Origin: a virus
Direction: 5' to 3' (one strand)
Virus record (IMG/VR): IMGVR_UViG_3300045988_020463
Location: 1-33,560 of that record
Length of the DNA stretch: 33,560 nucleotides
Shown here piece by piece: positions 1 through 33,560 of the stretch. The first letter of the stretch is position 1. Every line of letters begins with the position of its first letter. The notes beneath the pieces were generated by a model, which had not been told where the DNA came from, made no database searches, and saw nothing but the letters and a program-made list of their open reading frames with translations. Both the position numbers and the translations under genes were made by a program.

Positions 1-99
1 CCGCCCGTTAACATGCCGAAGAAGAAAGAAACAAAATTGTCTAAAGAGGCTGTATCAGAAGCAGCTAAAAGATTTTACAACAAGTAACTAAAAAAAAAC
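1..99. repeat. Terminal overlap, copy 1 (identical to 33462..33560); contains the last 87 nt of the protease-scaffold CDS
   Basis: Base-by-base comparison: ccgcccgttaacatgccgaag...caagtaactaaaaaaaaac occurs at both ends of the window. The repeat sits inside a CDS, which fits an assembler overlap on a circular or permuted genome. Confidence 0.95.
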
Positions 100-6281: not shown

Positions 6282-6287
6282 TTAGGA

Positions 6288-6319
6288 AATGGAGGGCTGT
6301 TAACAGTTCTCCATTTTTT
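6288..6319 (+). terminator. Rho-independent terminator ending the late block
   Basis: aatggag...ctccatt stem with an inner ctgttaacag palindrome, followed by tttttt. Confidence 0.8.
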
Positions 6320-6335
6320 GTTAACATTCTTTAGA

Positions 6336-6555
6336 CACAGCCTGCACAGTAGAAAAGTGGGTCTGTGCAGGTCTCTGTGCAGTCTAACTCCTTATATTAT
6401 AATACATTATATGTAAATGCACAGTAAACACAGTAAAAAGGGGGTAAAACATTATCCTGGAGAATATACCATTTACCACTATAGAACGAGCTGTAGAAAC
6501 CACTATATTCTATATTAAAGTTTAGAAAAAAGGGTGTGTTTCTGTGCAGTGCAGG
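6336..6555 (+). repeat. Duplicated intergenic element, copy A (partner 23147..23358)
   Basis: By eye, the two flanking blocks are about 85-90% identical to copy B and surround a diverged centre of about 45 bp. Contents: hairpin CCTGCACAG-N13-CTGTGCAGG (6341..6371); further CTGTGCAG at 6375 and 6542; TGCACAG at 6418; AT palindrome TATTATAATA at 6395..6404. Confidence 0.9.
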
Positions 6556-6646
6556 ATAAAACACTGATAAATAGCACTTTAGCCCTCACACACTGTTTCT
6601 TTACATCTTTTCACTTTTCATTAAGGTTTATTAGCACAAAAAGAGA

Positions 6647-6676
6647 TACAACCTATTGATATTTGCCGTATATTTG
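6647..6676 (+). promoter_or_regulatory. Early promoter (TACAAC-N16-TATATTTG; lacks the GTTAAC box)
   Basis: TATATTTG at 6669..6676 fits the Bacteroidota -7 consensus TAnnTTTG. The stretch caacctattgatatttgccgtatatttgcaatgtcaaaaggaaa is nearly identical to 16585..16625. Confidence 0.65.
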
Positions 6677-6805
6677 CAATGTCAAAAGGAAACAAGGGTT
6701 TCCCGGAAGGCATGAGGTCACCGAGACATTAAATCGGAAATAACCGTGAACAAGTAAGAACGTAGATTTGTTATCATTGTATTAGCGTATAAAACGAAGC
6801 GAAGT

Positions 6806-7030
6806 ATGAAAGCAGTTGATTTAATTTTCAGAGAAACGCTGACCGAGGGTCAGTTCGAAATGAAGAGCCACGTATTAGTATTTATAGACGAGGCAGGCAA
6901 CGAGTATAGCGATACCTTTTCAGAGGTACGCCATAACGGGAGATTTGAGGCATACCAATACAACGGTATGAACTACGAGTACATGCAGAACCTTTTGGAA
7001 GCTATTTTCTTAAATAAGGTTAACAAGTGA
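6806..7030 (+). CDS. Hypothetical early protein
   Basis: 74-aa ORF, the first gene of the early block. Confidence 0.6.
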   Translation: MKAVDLIFRETLTEGQFEMKSHVLVFIDEAGNEYSDTFSEVRHNGRFEAYQYNGMNYEYMQNLLEAIFLNKVNK

Positions 7031-7060
7031 ACCAACGTATTTGCAAAAGCGTTATATTTG
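7019..7060 (+). promoter_or_regulatory. Early promoter, GTTAAC class
   Basis: GTTAAC-aagtga-ACCAAC-N16-TATATTTG. GTTAAC starts exactly 34 nt before the TA of the -7 box. Confidence 0.7.
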
Positions 7061-9207: not shown

Positions 9208-9249
9208 GTTAACGAAAGAACCAACCTATCAGATAAAGCGTTATATTTG
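9208..9249 (+). promoter_or_regulatory. Early promoter, GTTAAC class
   Basis: GTTAAC-gaaaga-ACCAAC-N16-TATATTTG. Confidence 0.7.
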
Positions 9250-9275: not shown

Positions 9276-9605
9276 ATGAAAAGTAACAACGGTATTTTAA
9301 CAGAGAAAGAGATTCAAGAAAGAACCAAGTTTTGGAACAAAAAACAGTTCCGCACATGGAGCAAGAAAGAACTTGAAAGAACCTCTACAGACATGCAAAA
9401 ACTTTTAGCAGCCCTAAAGGAATTCAGTATGGACGAGATTGAATCTATTAGAAATTCAGACGTGTATAGATTTAGGGCATACGTGGGTGGCTTTAGGGCA
9501 TACGGAAAGAACGACCCGAAGTGTATCGTACGTATGGCAGCCCAAAAGGATATAGACTACGCTATTTCGATAGCACCAAAAACTTTTAAAGTTAAACAAG
9601 GTTAA
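9276..9605 (+). CDS. Hypothetical protein
   Basis: 109-aa ORF with leader caatttaaaaacaaaacgatATG. Confidence 0.65.
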   Translation: MKSNNGILTEKEIQERTKFWNKKQFRTWSKKELERTSTDMQKLLAALKEFSMDEIESIRNSDVYRFRAYVGGFRAYGKNDPKCIVRMAAQKDIDYAISIAPKTFKVKQG

Positions 9606-9642
9606 CAGAATAAACAACTTATTGATTTATTTGTTATCTTTG
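9601..9642 (+). promoter_or_regulatory. Early promoter, GTTAAC class
   Basis: GTTAAC-agaata-AACAAC-N16-TATCTTTG. Confidence 0.65.
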
Positions 9643-16497: not shown

Positions 16498-16515
16498 GGG
16501 GGCGTAAAAGCCCCC
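16498..16515 (+). other. Hairpin after the primase gene (no U-tract)
   Basis: gggggc-gtaaaa-gccccc. No T-run follows. Confidence 0.35.
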
Positions 16516-16570
16516 AAATGTTAACTAACTGTTAACAGAATAACTAAATGAGGTTTATTTCTTAAATGGT

Positions 16571-16612
16571 GTTAACGGAATATACAACCTATCGTTATTT
16601 GCCGTATATTTG
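16571..16612 (+). promoter_or_regulatory. Early promoter, GTTAAC class
   Basis: GTTAAC-ggaata-TACAAC-N16-TATATTTG. Two further GTTAAC boxes lie upstream at 16520 and 16531. Confidence 0.7.
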
Positions 16613-16654
16613 TAATGTCAAAAGGAAATAATAACAATTTAAAAACAAAAGATT

Positions 16655-19097: not shown

Positions 19098-19416
19098 AAA
19101 AGATTTGGAGCGTACATTCTCCGAAAAGCTTAACCGAACAAAAAAGGTGTGGGTAATAAAACTATTATCCACATTTATAAAAGGTTTGCCGGATAGAATG
19201 ATACTTTGCCGGGGTGGGTATGTAGGCTTTGCCGAGATAAAGACCACGGGTAAGAAACCAACTAAGATACAATTACTTATACATAGCAAGTTAGAGGCTT
19301 TAGGTTTCAAAGTATTTGTTATCGACGATTTGGAAAGCAGGGACGCAGCGATAAGTTTCTTCTTAAGAAATGTTAAGGAAATAAACAACGTACCGGGAAA
19401 AGGGTTATCTTTGTAG
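19078..19416 (+). CDS. VRR-NUC domain nuclease
   Basis: GLPDRMILCRGGYVGFAEIKTTGKKPTKIQ matches the VRR-NUC catalytic core (PD...E.K...Q). Confidence 0.8.
   Translation: MKEIISEKDLERTFSEKLNRTKKVWVIKLLSTFIKGLPDRMILCRGGYVGFAEIKTTGKKPTKIQLLIHSKLEALGFKVFVIDDLESRDAAISFFLRNVKEINNVPGKGLSL
19372..19413 (+). promoter_or_regulatory. Early promoter, GTTAAC class (variant GTTAAG), embedded in the VRR-NUC 3' end
   Basis: GTTAAG-gaaata-AACAAC-N16-TATCTTTG, with the same 34-nt and 16-nt spacings as the other members. Confidence 0.6.
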
Positions 19417-21395: not shown

Positions 21396-21437
21396 GTTAA
21401 CGAAAGAACCAACATAACGGGAAAAGCGTTATATTTG
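21396..21437 (+). promoter_or_regulatory. Early promoter, GTTAAC class
   Basis: GTTAAC-gaaaga-ACCAAC-N16-TATATTTG. Confidence 0.7.
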
Positions 21438-22316: not shown

Positions 22317-22604
22317 ATGACTAAAGAACCAAAGCTTCCCCATAAGCTTAAGTGGGGCGATAAGACAGCCGCAGTGGTTGACGAAGTGGGATACCTTATC
22401 GGTATTAGAATAGTGGGCTACACGAGCCTAAAAGACGTGATTATAGCCGAGGTGCACGAAAGTGTGGCGTACGGAGTGGGCGCGTGGAGCATGCCCGAAG
22501 ACTTAAAGAGCGCGGGCAGCAGCGACGTGTTTATGAAGAAGCCGCGCGCCGGGGCATATTACAAGTATATAAAGCTTAAAAACATCGTGCATGAAGAAAG
22601 TTAG
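22317..22604 (+). CDS. Hypothetical protein
   Basis: 95-aa ORF with an A-rich leader (aaggataagaaaATG). Confidence 0.6.
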   Translation: MTKEPKLPHKLKWGDKTAAVVDEVGYLIGIRIVGYTSLKDVIIAEVHESVAYGVGAWSMPEDLKSAGSSDVFMKKPRAGAYYKYIKLKNIVHEES

Positions 22605-22986
22605 TTTTATGGATATGGCGGTATGCCTTAACTGTCATGTGTTCATCATATGGGAGTTCATACGAAGGTACGGTTATACCGCCGGGGTAACAAAAGACAA
22701 GTACGGGCGCGGTTATGTGGAAGCCAATCTTTGCAACGGTTGGATTGATAAGCTGGCAAAGTATGTAGCCGCCCAGGACTTCACGTATAAGCAGCCCATC
22801 AATAAAAGGCAGTACCTTATTAGGGATGAGGCACGCCTCGCAGAGGAGAAAAGAAACGAGCAGGACATATCGAGAACCTACGGAATTGACCCGGACGGAA
22901 GGATAAAAAGGGTATCAACGTTCAAGAACGGAACTGTTCAAACGTGGTATTGGTATCGGTCCTCGCTCGGGTGGAAATTGACATAA
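22591..22986 (+). CDS. Hypothetical protein, last gene of the early block
   Basis: 131-aa ORF. The start may instead be ATG 22609, just after the upstream stop. Confidence 0.6.
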   Translation: MKKVSFMDMAVCLNCHVFIIWEFIRRYGYTAGVTKDKYGRGYVEANLCNGWIDKLAKYVAAQDFTYKQPINKRQYLIRDEARLAEEKRNEQDISRTYGIDPDGRIKRVSTFKNGTVQTWYWYRSSLGWKLT

Positions 22987-23063: not shown

Positions 23064-23106
23064 AGCCCAAATCTGATTACAAAATGTCAGATTTGGGCTT
23101 TTGTTT
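23064..23106 (+). terminator. Rho-independent terminator ending the early block
   Basis: Perfect 13-bp stem agcccaaatctga/tcagatttgggct followed by ttttgttt. Confidence 0.9.
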
Positions 23107-23146
23107 ATATTCAGAAAAAAGGGCCTCTAAATTTAACATATTTTAT

Positions 23147-23358
23147 GCACACCTGCACAGTAAAAAATCGCTACTGTGCAGGTCTCTGTGCACTCTAACT
23201 CTCTCTATTATAATATATTATATGTAAATGCACAGATACACAGTAAAAAGAGGGTAAAACATTATTTTGGAGAAAAGTGTATTTTAGGGGGTATGAAATA
23301 TACTATATCCTATATTAAAGTTTAGAAAAAAAGGTGTGTGTCTGTGCAGGTGCCTGCA
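23147..23358 (+). repeat. Duplicated intergenic element, copy B (partner 6336..6555)
   Basis: Contents: hairpin CCTGCACAG-N13-CTGTGCAGG (23152..23182); CTGTGCAC at 23186; TGCACAG at 23229; CTGTGCAG at 23342; TATTATAATA at 23206..23215; terminal palindrome TGCAGG-tg-CCTGCA at 23345..23358. Confidence 0.9.
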
Positions 23359-23490: not shown

Positions 23491-23515
23491 TGCCATGATT
23501 GGAAACGACGTGAGT

Positions 23516-23614
23516 AGTCCAACTACTGGAATAGTCCAACTACTGGAATAGTCCAACTACTGGAATAGTCCAACTACTGGAATAGTCCAACTACTGGAAT
23601 AGTCCAACTACTGG
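23516..23614 (+). repeat. Tandem array of a 17-bp unit, AGTCCAACTACTGGAAT: 5 perfect copies plus one 14/17 copy
   Basis: Counted base by base, with units starting at 23516, 23533, 23550, 23567, 23584 and 23601. Each unit contains the inverted pair TCCA-N5-TGGA. The array ends 77 nt upstream of the terS ATG. Confidence 0.95.
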
Positions 23615-23690
23615 TCTACTACTCTTGCATCTCTTTAAGAGACCGCGGGCACACACGTGCGATACCTTATTAATACCAAATAACAAAAAT

Positions 23691-26078: not shown

Positions 26079-26483
26079 ATGACTTTTGAAACAATAATTA
26101 ACACAGCGAGCGCCCGGGCTACAGCACTGGGCAAAACGCTGATATTCGGAGATACCGCGGTACAGAACGTATCGGCTAACGAATTGAGCGAGGACTTTTT
26201 TACGCTTGACGTAACAACTGGAAGCTATACGGACACGAACGTACCTAACAGCAGCGCCTACACGGTAGTCATCCGCTGTATGGGTACATCGGCTTATATG
26301 CGAGACGATGCAGTAGAGATTGCAACTTTGATACGTACAGACCTACTGTTGCATGAGATGCTTAAAAGCTTCATATGTGGCTACGAGATTGGCTCGCTCC
26401 GTATCACCAAAGTGCAGAACCAGTACGATACAATCAAATCGGGTTGGGAGGCAACGTTCGACGCATACAAGTACGGGGCGTGA
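26079..26483 (+). CDS. Hypothetical structural-module protein (possible head/tail completion protein)
   Basis: 134-aa ORF located 2 nt after the upstream stop. Function guessed from position only. Confidence 0.6.
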   Translation: MTFETIINTASARATALGKTLIFGDTAVQNVSANELSEDFFTLDVTTGSYTDTNVPNSSAYTVVIRCMGTSAYMRDDAVEIATLIRTDLLLHEMLKSFICGYEIGSLRITKVQNQYDTIKSGWEATFDAYKYGA

Positions 26484-26494
26484 ACTTAATACCG

Positions 26495-26526
26495 TTTGCT
26501 TTCTGATGGTTTACTTCGTACTTTTG
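26495..26526 (+). promoter_or_regulatory. Canonical Bacteroidota-type promoter (TTTG-N20-TACTTTTG) inside the late module
   Basis: TTTG at 26495..26498 and TACTTTTG at 26519..26526, followed by the leader tttaaaaacaaaagaacATG. Confidence 0.6.
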
Positions 26527-26550
26527 TGCACTGTTTAAAAACAAAAGAAC

Positions 26551-26895
26551 ATGAAAATCATCAGAAACAACATTATCCCGGTTAAAGGCTTCAAAGCTAT
26601 TAACCTATTCGGCGTTCTCTTCGTACGTGGTAACGCTGTAATTAGCGAGAAGACGTTAAGACACGAACACATCCACACGATGCAAATGCGTGAAATGCTG
26701 TATGTGCCGTTTTACTTGTGGTATGGTATCGAGTACGTCATTCGCTTTTTCGGTTGGAGCTTTGAAAAGAAGCCGTGCGACCCCAATGACAAGCCATATG
26801 ACCGCATGAGTTTTGAAAAGGAGGCATATGGCAACGAGCACGATGTAAACTACCCGAAGACGAGGAAACATTTTAGCTGGATTAAGTATATTTAA
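26551..26895 (+). CDS. Small HExxH-motif protein (putative zinc metallopeptidase-like), moron-like
   Basis: 114 aa with LRHEHIHTMQMRE (HEHIH = HExxH) followed by a hydrophobic/aromatic stretch. It has its own promoter and an early-type leader within the structural gene block. Confidence 0.6.
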   Translation: MKIIRNNIIPVKGFKAINLFGVLFVRGNAVISEKTLRHEHIHTMQMREMLYVPFYLWYGIEYVIRFFGWSFEKKPCDPNDKPYDRMSFEKEAYGNEHDVNYPKTRKHFSWIKYI

Positions 26896-32567: not shown

Positions 32568-33548
32568 ATGAAATTTAGAAAACTTAGAATTATTCAAGCC
32601 GGGGTTACTACCAATTTTGGGACATATGAAGGCAAGGAATTTCCGTTGGTTATTACGGAGACCGCGGTTCAAAGCGTTGTAACGCTCGGCAACCTAAAGC
32701 CTATCCATTGCAGGCGTACCCATAACGGGGCGGATATGTTGGACGGGTATTTAGGAAAATTCACTAACTTCATTTATGAGGATGGCGTAGCTTATGCCGA
32801 TTTGGAATTATCCGAAGCCTTACAAGCCGCCTACCCATCGGAGGCAAAATTCATCTCCGAGATGATAAAGAACGAGCCCGATATGTTGGGCGTTTCGGTG
32901 GTGGGCATCAACAATCAGACATTAAACGGTGATGTGCTGGACGTTACCGAATTTTTTGAATTATATTCATGCGATTTGGTAGGACTTCCAGCAGCCACCA
33001 CAAGCTTATTTAATAATCAAAACGAAAAGAAGATGAACAAATTTTTTAGTTCTTTCGCAGAGCTATTTAAAAAGTCGAGCTTTGCAACAGAGACGGTTGA
33101 AACCGTAGACGGTGCAAGTATCACGATTGAAGCGGCTGGCGAAACAATGGCTATCGGCGACAAGGTTTTCGATAGCGAAGGCAATGCCCACCCGGACGGC
33201 AAAGTAGAAGTGCAGGTTGAGGACGGTGTATTGGTTATCACCATTGCAAACGGTGTTATCGAAAGCGTAGAAGCCAAGGTAGAAGAAGAGGAAAAGGAAG
33301 AAAAAGAAGAAAAAGAAGAGATTGAAACCCCGGCAACCGCTGATGTACCCAAAGAGTTTGCAAACCGTATGGCAGCTTTGGAAACTTCGGTTACCGAACT
33401 CACCGCAACAATAGAGGCTATGACGGCTCAATTTAACAGAGCGACACCGAAACCCGGCGTACCGCCCGTTAACATGCCGAAGAAGAAAGAAACAAAATTG
33501 TCTAAAGAGGCTGTATCAGAAGCAGCTAAAAGATTTTACAACAAGTAA
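32568..33548 (+). CDS. Prohead serine protease (HK97 gp4/S78-like) fused to a C-terminal scaffold-like domain
   Basis: CRRTHNGADMLDGYLG, GVSVVG and ELYSCDLVGLPAATTSLF parallel the S78 blocks (nHd..iG, GlSiGf, EvSlV..PA). The C-terminal half has the acidic tract EEEEKEEKEEKEE and a helical tail. Start moved from the track position 32511 to ATG 32568, behind the -7 box. Confidence 0.75.
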   Translation: MKFRKLRIIQAGVTTNFGTYEGKEFPLVITETAVQSVVTLGNLKPIHCRRTHNGADMLDGYLGKFTNFIYEDGVAYADLELSEALQAAYPSEAKFISEMIKNEPDMLGVSVVGINNQTLNGDVLDVTEFFELYSCDLVGLPAATTSLFNNQNEKKMNKFFSSFAELFKKSSFATETVETVDGASITIEAAGETMAIGDKVFDSEGNAHPDGKVEVQVEDGVLVITIANGVIESVEAKVEEEEKEEKEEKEEIETPATADVPKEFANRMAALETSVTELTATIEAMTAQFNRATPKPGVPPVNMPKKKETKLSKEAVSEAAKRFYNK

Positions 33549-33560
33549 CTAAAAAAAAAC
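33462..33560. repeat. Terminal overlap, copy 2 (identical to 1..99)
   Basis: See copy 1. Confidence 0.95.

Follow-up and report, generated by a model that had tools for sequence, protein, structure and literature searches.

A rigidly spaced putative early promoter cassette with CAAC in the -33 slot in a clade of Bacteroides phages

The window examined here is the whole stretch of 33,560 nucleotides (nt) of viral DNA in IMG/VR record IMGVR_UViG_3300045988_020463, whose early region carries seven copies of a putative promoter with boxes GTTAAC (missing from one copy), CAAC and TAT(A/C)TTTG at fixed distances from one another. The conserved unit exceeds the three-box motif reported in an initial annotation of this DNA and amounts to a promoter-plus-leader cassette of about 85 nt. 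These cassettes have a common architecture and rigid spacing, are conserved among related phages, stand before early genes and share their plan with a validated phage promoter. Our preferred reading, held with moderate confidence, is that they are self-sufficient promoters for host RNA polymerase carrying sigma-A, that they combine TTAA boxes resembling UP elements with a clade-specific -33 hexamer, and that they need no phage-made protein.

Seven sites with a common anatomy

The window was searched for GTTAAC-N6-WMCAAC-N16-TATMTTTG with at most two mismatches, and 100 dinucleotide-preserving shuffles served as the null. Exactly six matches were recovered (7019, 9208, 9601, 16571, 19372 and 21396), all on the + strand and all perfect except that at 19372, which has GTTAAG (one mismatch). 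The shuffles yielded none, so chance is excluded. These are the six members named in the initial annotation, and the spacing it gave holds in every copy: the start of GTTAAC is 34 nt, and the end of CAAC 16 nt, ahead of the TA of the downstream box. Its partial seventh site, here called P1, is also present and lacks GTTAAC, as do the P1 orthologues in phages BU2-2, EMB1 and BU241P1. All seven copies carry TAnnTTTG, which agrees with the proposal that the sites belong to one promoter family and share a -7 box of the host sigma-A type.

The seven sites (P1-P7; Table 1) fall within 6.6-21.5 kilobases (kb), with none in the packaging, structural or lysis part, which bears out the early-half distribution noted before. 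Each directly precedes a + strand gene, either in a short intergenic gap or over the last codons of the upstream gene. P2 overlaps the stop codon of its upstream gene (7028-7030), and P6 lies wholly within the 3′ end of the VRR-NUC gene (stop 19414-19416); the GTTAAG variant of P6 is retained at the orthologous site in relatives. The gene behind P3 encodes a basic protein of 109 amino acids (aa), and P4 heads an operon for single-strand-binding protein, exonuclease, DNA polymerase and primase-helicase. The promoter with which the family had been contrasted is as described, with TTTG at 26495, N20 and TACTTTTG at 26519. This canonical host-type promoter lies within the late region; it has CTTAAT where the cassettes have GTTAAC, and its leader, TTTAAAAACA, is the one that they carry.

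GTTAAC occurs 26 times in the genome against about 9 expected, and 9 of the 26 copies lie within the 8% of the genome that is intergenic. A restriction-modification role for this HpaI site was rejected, as the sequence is over-represented, not avoided. The extra copies reported at 6299, 6320, 16520 and 16531 are all present. Those at 6299 and 6320 are not promoter boxes: the first sits at the centre of a terminator-like hairpin, which is followed by a T run and then by the second. The pair at 16520 and 16531 lies upstream of P5, together with a GC hairpin.

We built a consensus from 246 unique cassette copies collected from relatives, spanning -50 to +24 with index 0 at the first T of the -7 box. 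Across these copies the box positions are near-invariant and the spacer positions are free, and such position-specific conservation points to selection on function, not recent copying alone. A query with the upstream half only (GTTAAB-N8-CAAC) returned 215 unique sites; in 195 of them TAnnTTTG follows at exactly N16, and the remainder are chance matches in coding regions or single-base mutants of the box. Thus, the three boxes form one rigidly spaced unit. The box is followed by an A-rich leader, ATTTAAAAACA, and then by ATG, with a box-to-ATG gap of exactly 26 nt in four of the seven copies.

Start sites were predicted by comparison with 51-nt windows of Bacteroides thetaiotaomicron that end at mapped starts (PMC12596196 Table S9), where the start of sigma-A-type entries is the fifth or sixth base past the G of the box. 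By this measure, the cassettes are predicted to start near 6681, 7065, 9254, 9647, 16617, 19418 and 21442. The fifth base past the box, taken as the start, is a purine in 97% of the 246 copies. Relative to the predicted start, the box occupies -12..-5, A(A/C)CAAC -34..-29 (CAAC -32..-29), GTTAAC -46..-41 and CTTAAA -56..-51.

P1 has a leader of 125 nt up to the first early gene (ATG 6806), and the fold of this leader is no better than that of shuffled sequences (z = -0.02). The leader sequence CAATGTCAAAAGGAAAC is common to P1, P5, B40-8/P_BfP1E6 (an engineered promoter discussed below) and large IMG/VR contigs. More broadly, a transcribed leader of the form (C/T)A(A/G)TGTC(A/G)(A/G)AAGG(A/G)AAC follows the -7 box in three otherwise unrelated groups of Bacteroidales phages and in P_BfP1E6; it may serve as start-site context, or as a translation or RNA signal.

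Conservation in phages and at host loci

Related phages were searched for the tripartite motif, and the cassette proved widespread across a large clade. With the 82-nt P7 cassette as query, blastn returned 138 places in 43 phage records, 39 of them from phages of the Bacteroides/Phocaeicola group; four weak partial matches apart, the records that bear the cassette belong to phages of Bacteroides, Phocaeicola or OM05-12 and measure 33-43 kb. Scanning IMG/VR for the exact pattern gave at least 119 stretches, mostly contigs of 31-37 kb, with up to three copies per fetched stretch. Phages BS162P3, BV739P1 and BM127P1 share less than 15% alignable DNA with the window, yet each has four to seven cassette copies.

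At orthologous promoters the cassettes are 69-96% identical in seven of eight comparisons (58% in the other), the 150-nt flanks are 51-69% identical, and the proteins encoded behind the cassettes are only 30-69% identical, one 46-aa outlier apart. For example, P7 and its BV739P1 copy are 96% identical over 85 nt, with flanks at 53% and 69%. The cassette appears better conserved than the genes that it is predicted to drive.

Conservation of this kind could also arise if the cassettes were homologous linkers for module exchange and only the -7 box mattered for transcription. Consistent with such a role, different genes stand behind the same cassette in different relatives, identity ends a few bases past the ATG, the phage EMB1 has an additional cassette plus gene, and the cassettes are far more alike than their flanks. 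However, the conservation across the 246 copies is not uniform, the spacing to the -7 box is fixed, and the boxes are kept in lineages that have no other homology. We regard this explanation as very improbable; a use in recombination would be a by-product of the promoter role rather than an alternative to it.

One such independent lineage comprises viral contigs of 49-96 kb, which have one CAAC-type copy each and no homologues of the early proteins of the window. These contigs also hold CTTAAT-N4-GTTAAT in identical register joined to a canonical TTG, which indicates that the TTAA boxes upstream can be separated from the hexamer as a module. Two large contigs with a single CAAC-type promoter encode structured RNAs, a HEARO RNA at 2084-2297 in L008 and a c4-2 antisense RNA at 3571-3651 in L049, which suggest that they are temperate or mobile-element-rich phages.

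To cover bacterial chromosomes, one genome from each of 185,579 species was searched with a stricter pattern (19 specified bases), which matched at 16 loci in total. Eight are short contigs or contigs of 15-34 kb with typical clade cassettes, and are probably phage DNA binned into metagenome-assembled genomes. The other eight are orthologous chromosomal loci of Prevotella/Bacteroidaceae type, with neighbours that include TonB, peptidyl-tRNA hydrolase, L25, NusB and EPSP synthase. There the motif precedes a conserved 170-aa signal-peptide protein (338 homologues; labelled YwqK-like or VCBS in some sources). The orthologues keep the composite GTTAAC-N8-CAAC-N-TA-N13-box while their spacers drift. 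In more distant orthologues GTTAA(A/C/T) stays in register, and CAAC gives way to canonical TTG in three of four and to CAAG in the other. Ahead of the 170-aa protein gene, ATAAAA-N4-GTTAA(C/A/T) is found in fixed register with the -7 box across divergent species, with either CAAC or TTG in the slot. The stricter composite is otherwise absent from Bacteroides and Phocaeicola chromosomes. In B. thetaiotaomicron, BT2155 has AACAAC-N16-TAACTTTG ahead of its mapped start. Because the modules occur separably in several hosts, and in genomes that share no phage protein, their readers appear to be host-encoded.

These findings divide the earlier proposal of a phage-specific promoter class. The family does depart from the host consensus and is essentially absent from bacterial chromosomes, but the composite is present at one Prevotellaceae gene.

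The same loci raise the alternative that the boxes are sites for a Bacteroidales transcription factor, or that CAAC is the -30 AAC of the PM2 promoter class read by an alternative holoenzyme, so that the cassettes are hybrids tuned to the physiological state of the host. PM2 of B. thetaiotaomicron has AAC near -30 and TGTTAT near -10 and drives weakly expressed stress genes (PMC7366714). Like the cassettes, PM2 promoters have AAC at about -31..-29 from the start, as seen at mapped B. thetaiotaomicron starts, 16 nt ahead of the downstream element; in contrast, that element is TGTTAT in PM2 and TAnnTTTG in the cassettes. A host factor would also fit the retention of the boxes between orthologues of the chromosomal Prevotellaceae gene, the restriction of in-register GTTAA to that gene family among the sampled host promoters, and two entries of the Cur regulon that have AACAAC(A/G)TA-N13 ahead of a -7-like box.

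Against this, the -7 box is a perfect sigma-A element integral to the motif, no host regulon is visible given that the composite is otherwise absent from Bacteroides/Phocaeicola chromosomes, and the host evidence is anecdotal. Candidate factors also match poorly. As a promoter for an extracytoplasmic function (ECF) sigma factor (AAC -35, N16-17, CGT/GTT -10), the cassette was rejected, because the invariant CAAC is 13-14 nt from CGT/GTT; the variant reading GAAC-N17/18-CGT/GTT is confined to the ACCAAC subtype and leaves the invariance of CAAC unexplained, and across the copies the G at that position is only 49% conserved. The consensus for Cur (BT4338) is the palindrome wwwTATGTTnTAnAACATAwww, of which the cassette has the half-site-like AACnTA alone, with the partner half missing at the required spacing, and this operator was rejected as well. 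We consider a host factor or alternative holoenzyme rather unlikely.

CAAC in the -33 slot and the reader of the cassettes

The canonical Bacteroidota sigma-A (sigma-ABfr) promoter consists of TTTG at -33 and TAnnTTTG at -7 (Bayley 2000, as cited in PMC7366714 and PMC12632263), and small samples of host promoters show TTG in the slot 16 nt upstream of the box. The cassettes resemble these promoters in their identical -7 box, a predicted start 5-6 nt past the box, an A-rich leader that lacks a Shine-Dalgarno sequence and a hexamer slot 16 nt upstream. They differ in having A(A/C)C before AAC where host promoters have TTG, in their rigid spacing, against the variable spacer length of host promoters (PMC7366714), and in their extra conserved upstream boxes. 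No TTTG or TTG stands about 19-21 nt upstream of the TA.

Specifically, the slot in the clade holds ACCAAC, TACAAC or AACAAC. Among 208 clade copies that have GTTAAC, CAAC is found in about 95% and TTG in none, in agreement with the earlier statement that CAAC replaces the -33 TTG. In the 246-copy consensus CAAC is 97-100% conserved. Of 285 CAAC-type sites, GTTAAC accompanies 69%, GTTAAG or GTTAAT accompanies 15%, and a box of this kind is missing from 7%, which are the P1 orthologues. CAAC is thus kept where GTTAAC varies, and by these alignments it is CAAC, not GTTAAC, that is the most invariant box and the one furthest from host rules.

The closest counterpart in plan is P_BfP1E6, an engineered derivative of early promoters from Bacteroides fragilis phage B124-14/B40-8 (Whitaker et al. 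2017; sequences from the supplements of PMC8865466 and PMC12596196). This promoter is reported to be constitutively active at a high level in B. thetaiotaomicron and other Bacteroides that are not infected, and the parts upstream of its core are termed UP elements. Searches with blastn using the Whitaker-2017 promoters identified B124-14/B40-8-type B. fragilis phages as the source, with about three copies per genome. In a common register, B40-8/B124-14 and P_BfP1E6 have GTTAAw (-53), GTTAAA (-42), TTAAAG (-34), TTGAAC or TTGCAA (-22..-17), N16 and TATATTTG, with CAGTGTC(A/G)AAAGGAAAC as the leader behind it.

This family and the cassettes share phased (G/C)TTAA(A/C/T) boxes upstream, a hexamer-N16-TATATTTG arrangement, CA after the box, several copies per genome and phages of the same host group; its leader, of type CA(A/G)TGTC(A/G)AAAGGAAAC, recurs in P1 and P5 of the window. 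In contrast, the B. fragilis family keeps TTG (TTGAAC or TTGCAA) where the cassettes have A(A/C)C, and its GTTAA boxes stand at -53 and -42 with TTAAAG at -34, whereas the cassette boxes stand at -44 and -34. A blastn search with the window cassette finds no B. fragilis phages, and one with P_BfP1E6 finds B. fragilis phages only. As far as their sequences tell, the two share a building plan, that is, architecture but not sequence homology. By analogy, P_BfP1E6 offers the best available evidence that GTTAA-type boxes can work with host polymerase alone.

UP-element promoters such as rrnB P1 of Escherichia coli have two A/T-rich subsites about 10 bp apart, centred near -43 and -53 upstream of a -35-type hexamer, and are very strong. 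The cassettes likewise place GTTAAC and CTTAAA 10 bp apart in helical phase, with flanking T-rich and GAAAGAA runs, and these boxes provide A/T-rich phased subsites between about -40 and -60. The subsites are A-tracts in UP elements and a TTAA core with conserved flanking G and C in the cassettes. By analogy, the C-terminal domain of the polymerase alpha subunit may bind at the TTAA boxes.

In our preferred model, host RNA polymerase with primary sigma-A would bind the -7 box TAT(A/C)TTTG, while the phased TTAA boxes would either recruit the C-terminal domains of the alpha subunits or introduce a bend in the DNA. A strong -7 box combined with the TTAA boxes would compensate for, or replace, the contact between sigma region 4 and TTG, and the invariant CAAC-N-TA would be read by some part of the host transcription machinery. 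The purine at the start and the A-rich ATTTAAAAACA leader 26 nt ahead of the ATG would supply start-site and translation-initiation context for a host that does without Shine-Dalgarno sequences. Repetition along the early half would then give uniformly high, immediate and factor-independent expression, and the repeated cassettes, behind which different genes stand in relatives, would serve as module boundaries.

The initial annotation had instead suggested an activator, a repressor or a modified holoenzyme bound at GTTAAC. This finds no support, given a full motif at the first early promoter of BM127P1, the lack of a regulator among the proteins searched, the analogy to P_BfP1E6 and the chromosomal copy in Prevotellaceae. 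The first early gene of the window (6806) is preceded by the partial P1, which has CAAC. The homologous first early promoter has the full motif in BM127P1 (12556) and GTTAAC with CAAA for CAAC in BV739P1 (35176). A full motif at the very first early promoter must fire before any phage protein exists. Furthermore, the early region of the window and the 520-nt gap ahead of it contain no other TAnnTTTG promoter, and the cassette promoters must therefore fire on entry. Searches of Pfam and PHROGs with 19 small proteins (17 of them early) detected no sigma factor, anti-sigma factor, helix-turn-helix protein, MotA/AsiA or known regulator, although remote homologues could be missed.

A factor could act at CAAC-N-TA, near -30, instead of at GTTAAC. 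An accessory protein bound there would substitute for the region-4/-33 contact in the manner of MotA/AsiA, or would repress for early shut-off. In T4 middle promoters, a MotA box near -30 replaces the -35 element and works with AsiA-remodelled sigma-70. The cassettes share with these promoters a host-type downstream element and a phage-family-specific box near -30, and they differ in that no MotA/AsiA homologues and no separate early class were found and that the cassette box also occurs at host chromosomal promoters. A factor of this kind would account for CAAC being 97-100% conserved with TTG never in the slot. The element is also centred about 3 bp downstream of the TTG position, like the MotA box at T4 middle promoters. 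In a variant of this proposal, a small phage protein directed against sigma region 4 silences TTG-dependent host promoters, to which TTG-less phage promoters are immune.

Candidate proteins exist for such a factor. The two proteins encoded first in the early region, both small and acidic, are conserved across the clade (74 aa, isoelectric point (pI) 4.8; 91 aa, pI 4.6). The last gene of the early region encodes a basic protein whose model (predicted local distance difference test score, pLDDT, 80) combines a beta-alpha-alpha-beta-beta-alpha-alpha domain at the N terminus with a beta domain at the C terminus. The N-terminal topology of the model is reminiscent of MerR/Xis winged helices, and the protein is a candidate late regulator. 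However, a Foldseek search of the model against the PDB gave nothing significant (best E = 0.35), no MotA, AsiA, sigma or helix-turn-helix family was detected, and there is no distinct earlier promoter class that could make an activator, a CAAC-type promoter heading the first gene in both the window and BM127P1 (BV739P1 has CAAA). The same arrangement is also found at Prevotellaceae and B. thetaiotaomicron promoters and in viral contigs that have no homologues of the early proteins. We judge a factor-dependent class unlikely. Quite improbable, in our estimate, is the more specific idea of a -33-independent class, to which the -7 box, the phased TTAA boxes and a CAAC-N-TA element near -30 would bring host polymerase, and which would let the phage keep transcribing after one of the small acidic early proteins disables the sigma-A region-4/TTG contact. 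If true, this would be a Bacteroidota counterpart of the AsiA-type host shut-off of T4, and the element may serve a few host genes.

Several points weigh against self-sufficient sigma-A promoters as the explanation. A near-invariant CAAC that does not drift to TTG is not what a simple weak -33 element predicts; something reads CAAC, and region 4 of sigma-A is not known to do so. The G and C that flank TTAA are conserved at about 90% and 72%, which is more base-specific than classical minor-groove recognition of UP elements. Since P_BfP1E6 retains TTG, its factor independence does not transfer fully to the cassettes. The eight chromosomal hits are orthologues and represent one family, a few chance matches are expected in such a scan, and this one chromosomal case may itself be fortuitous. 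GTTAA at -34 was rejected as a UP consensus for Bacteroidales in general: of about 24 candidate chromosomal promoters from Prevotella, those of the 170-aa gene family alone have GTTAA in register, which is thus not a general host promoter feature. An accessory factor may be delivered with the virion or encoded by the host. Finally, the promoter activity, start sites and timing of the cassettes are all inferred from sequence.

Genome setting and significance

Positions 1-99 and 33462-33560 of the window are identical (99 nt), which marks the record as a complete circular assembly of about 33,461 bp. The phage is a lytic siphophage of the Bacteroides uniformis type, close to the B. uniformis phages BU241P1, BU2-2 and EMB1, which align with 89-93% of a 20-kb query at 88-91% identity. 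The + strand carries every gene of the 33,560-nt genome. By orthology with annotated relatives, a late part with packaging, head, tail and lysis genes runs from 23.6 kb across the junction to 6.3 kb, and an early/replication part at 6.8-23.0 kb holds small early genes and replication/recombination genes, including a DUF2800 exonuclease, single-strand-binding protein, metallophosphatase, HNH endonuclease, DNA polymerase, VirE-type primase-helicase, VRR-NUC nuclease and SNF2 helicase. Three hairpins (Table 1) mark the boundaries of transcription units. The window contains no Rfam family and no tRNA by the searches made.

Table 1 Features of the window, the cassette consensus and related loci
Feature	Position	Strand	Details
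P1 (partial)	6647..6681	+	ATACAAC (CAAC 6649-6652), N16, TATATTTG 6669-6676, predicted start near G6681; no GTTAAC/CTTAAA
P2	7003..7089	+	CTTAAA 7009-7014, GTTAAC 7019-7024, ACCAAC 7031-7036, TATATTTG 7053-7060, predicted start A7065, ATG 7087
P3	9192..9278	+	CATAAA 9198-9203, GTTAAC 9208-9213, ACCAAC 9220-9225, TATATTTG 9242-9249, ATG 9276
P4	9585..9711	+	GTTAAA 9591-9596, GTTAAC 9601-9606, AACAAC 9613-9618, TATCTTTG 9635-9642, ATG 9709
P5	16555..16657	+	CTTAAA 16561-16566, GTTAAC 16571-16576, TACAAC 16583-16588, TATATTTG 16605-16612, leader TAATGTCAAAAGGAAA, ATG 16655
P6	19356..19442	+	CTTAAG 19362-19367, GTTAAG 19372-19377, AACAAC 19384-19389, TATCTTTG 19406-19413, ATG 19440
P7	21380..21466	+	CTTAAA 21386-21391, GTTAAC 21396-21401, ACCAAC 21408-21413, TATATTTG 21430-21437, ATG 21464
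Comparator promoter (non-member)	26479..26553	+	CTTAAT 26485-26490, TTTG 26495-26498, N20, TACTTTTG 26519-26526, TTTAAAAACA leader, ATG 26551 (PHROG 15610)
Consensus: T-rich stretch	index -51..-45		
Consensus: CTTAAA	index -44..-39		10 bp upstream of GTTAAC
Consensus: GTTAAC	index -34..-29		
Consensus: GAAAGAA	index -28..-22		purine-rich
Consensus: A(A/C)CAAC	index -22..-17		
Consensus: TA	index -15/-14		two bases after CAAC
Consensus: AAAA-GCGT	index -8..-1		
Consensus: TAT(A/C)TTTG	index 0..7		
Consensus: (C/T)A	index 8..9		
Consensus: purine	index 12		97% of 246 copies
Consensus: CAA	index 14..16		
Consensus: A run	index 20..24		
Terminator-like hairpin	6287-6316	+	arms 6287-6301/6302-6316; 3′ of lysis module; GTTAAC 6299 at centre
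GC hairpin without T run	16498-16515		3′ of primase-helicase gene, just ahead of P5
Last early-region gene	22591-22986		131-aa basic protein, pI 9.5; conserved throughout clade
Strong terminator	23064-23099		13-bp perfect arms and T run; end of early region
Leader (C/T)A(A/G)TGTC..	6677-6700, 16613-16630		also B40-8 66, 16765, 18975, 20961, 32541; L008, L049 and other large contigs
Prevotellaceae chromosomal loci			L127, L129-L133, L137, L141-L148

Other repeated elements were observed outside the cassettes. A paralogous element of about 230 nt lies in two long intergenic regions, at 6330-6560 before the early genes and at 23145-23355 before the terminase genes, and contains inverted repeats CCTGCACAG(TA)/(TA)CTGTGCAGG and common AT-rich blocks. 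This element may act as a module for phage-specific regulation or as a replication origin, and may be a likelier place for phage-encoded control than GTTAAC. Directly 5′ of the small terminase gene (start 23625), a 17-nt unit, AGTCCAACTACTGGAAT, is repeated six times in tandem (23515-23615) and may be a packaging-initiation or terminase-binding array. Short palindromes are avoided genome-wide (GATC 0 and CTAG 2 versus about 125 expected each; GGCC 23 versus 92), and eight 6-bp palindromes that contain GATC, CTAG or CTGCAG are absent, which suggests restriction avoidance.

In the accessible literature we found neither the cassette of this clade nor any -33 hexamer of the CAAC type; six cassette subsequences occur in no relevant paper, and nothing was found there on promoters of these phages. 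Phage Bf12P1, the subject of a single-cell study, belongs to another, B40-8-like family, and the promoters given in that study are predicted only.

Phages commonly carry sets of early promoters that are nearly identical, and the counterpart from B. fragilis phages already serves as a part for engineering. For Bacteroides and Phocaeicola, which are dominant bacteria of the gut, promoter rules are known only in outline and phage transcription programmes are almost unstudied. The cassette is a compact, conserved natural part that comprises promoter, start site and leader, exists in hundreds of variants and could extend the few strong expression parts for Bacteroides, which now derive from a single B. 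fragilis phage promoter. In metagenomic sequences, the motif also serves to locate the early transcription units of the clade. Moreover, an invariant CAAC in place of TTG would mean that the canonical -33 contact is no prerequisite for a strong promoter in Bacteroidota.

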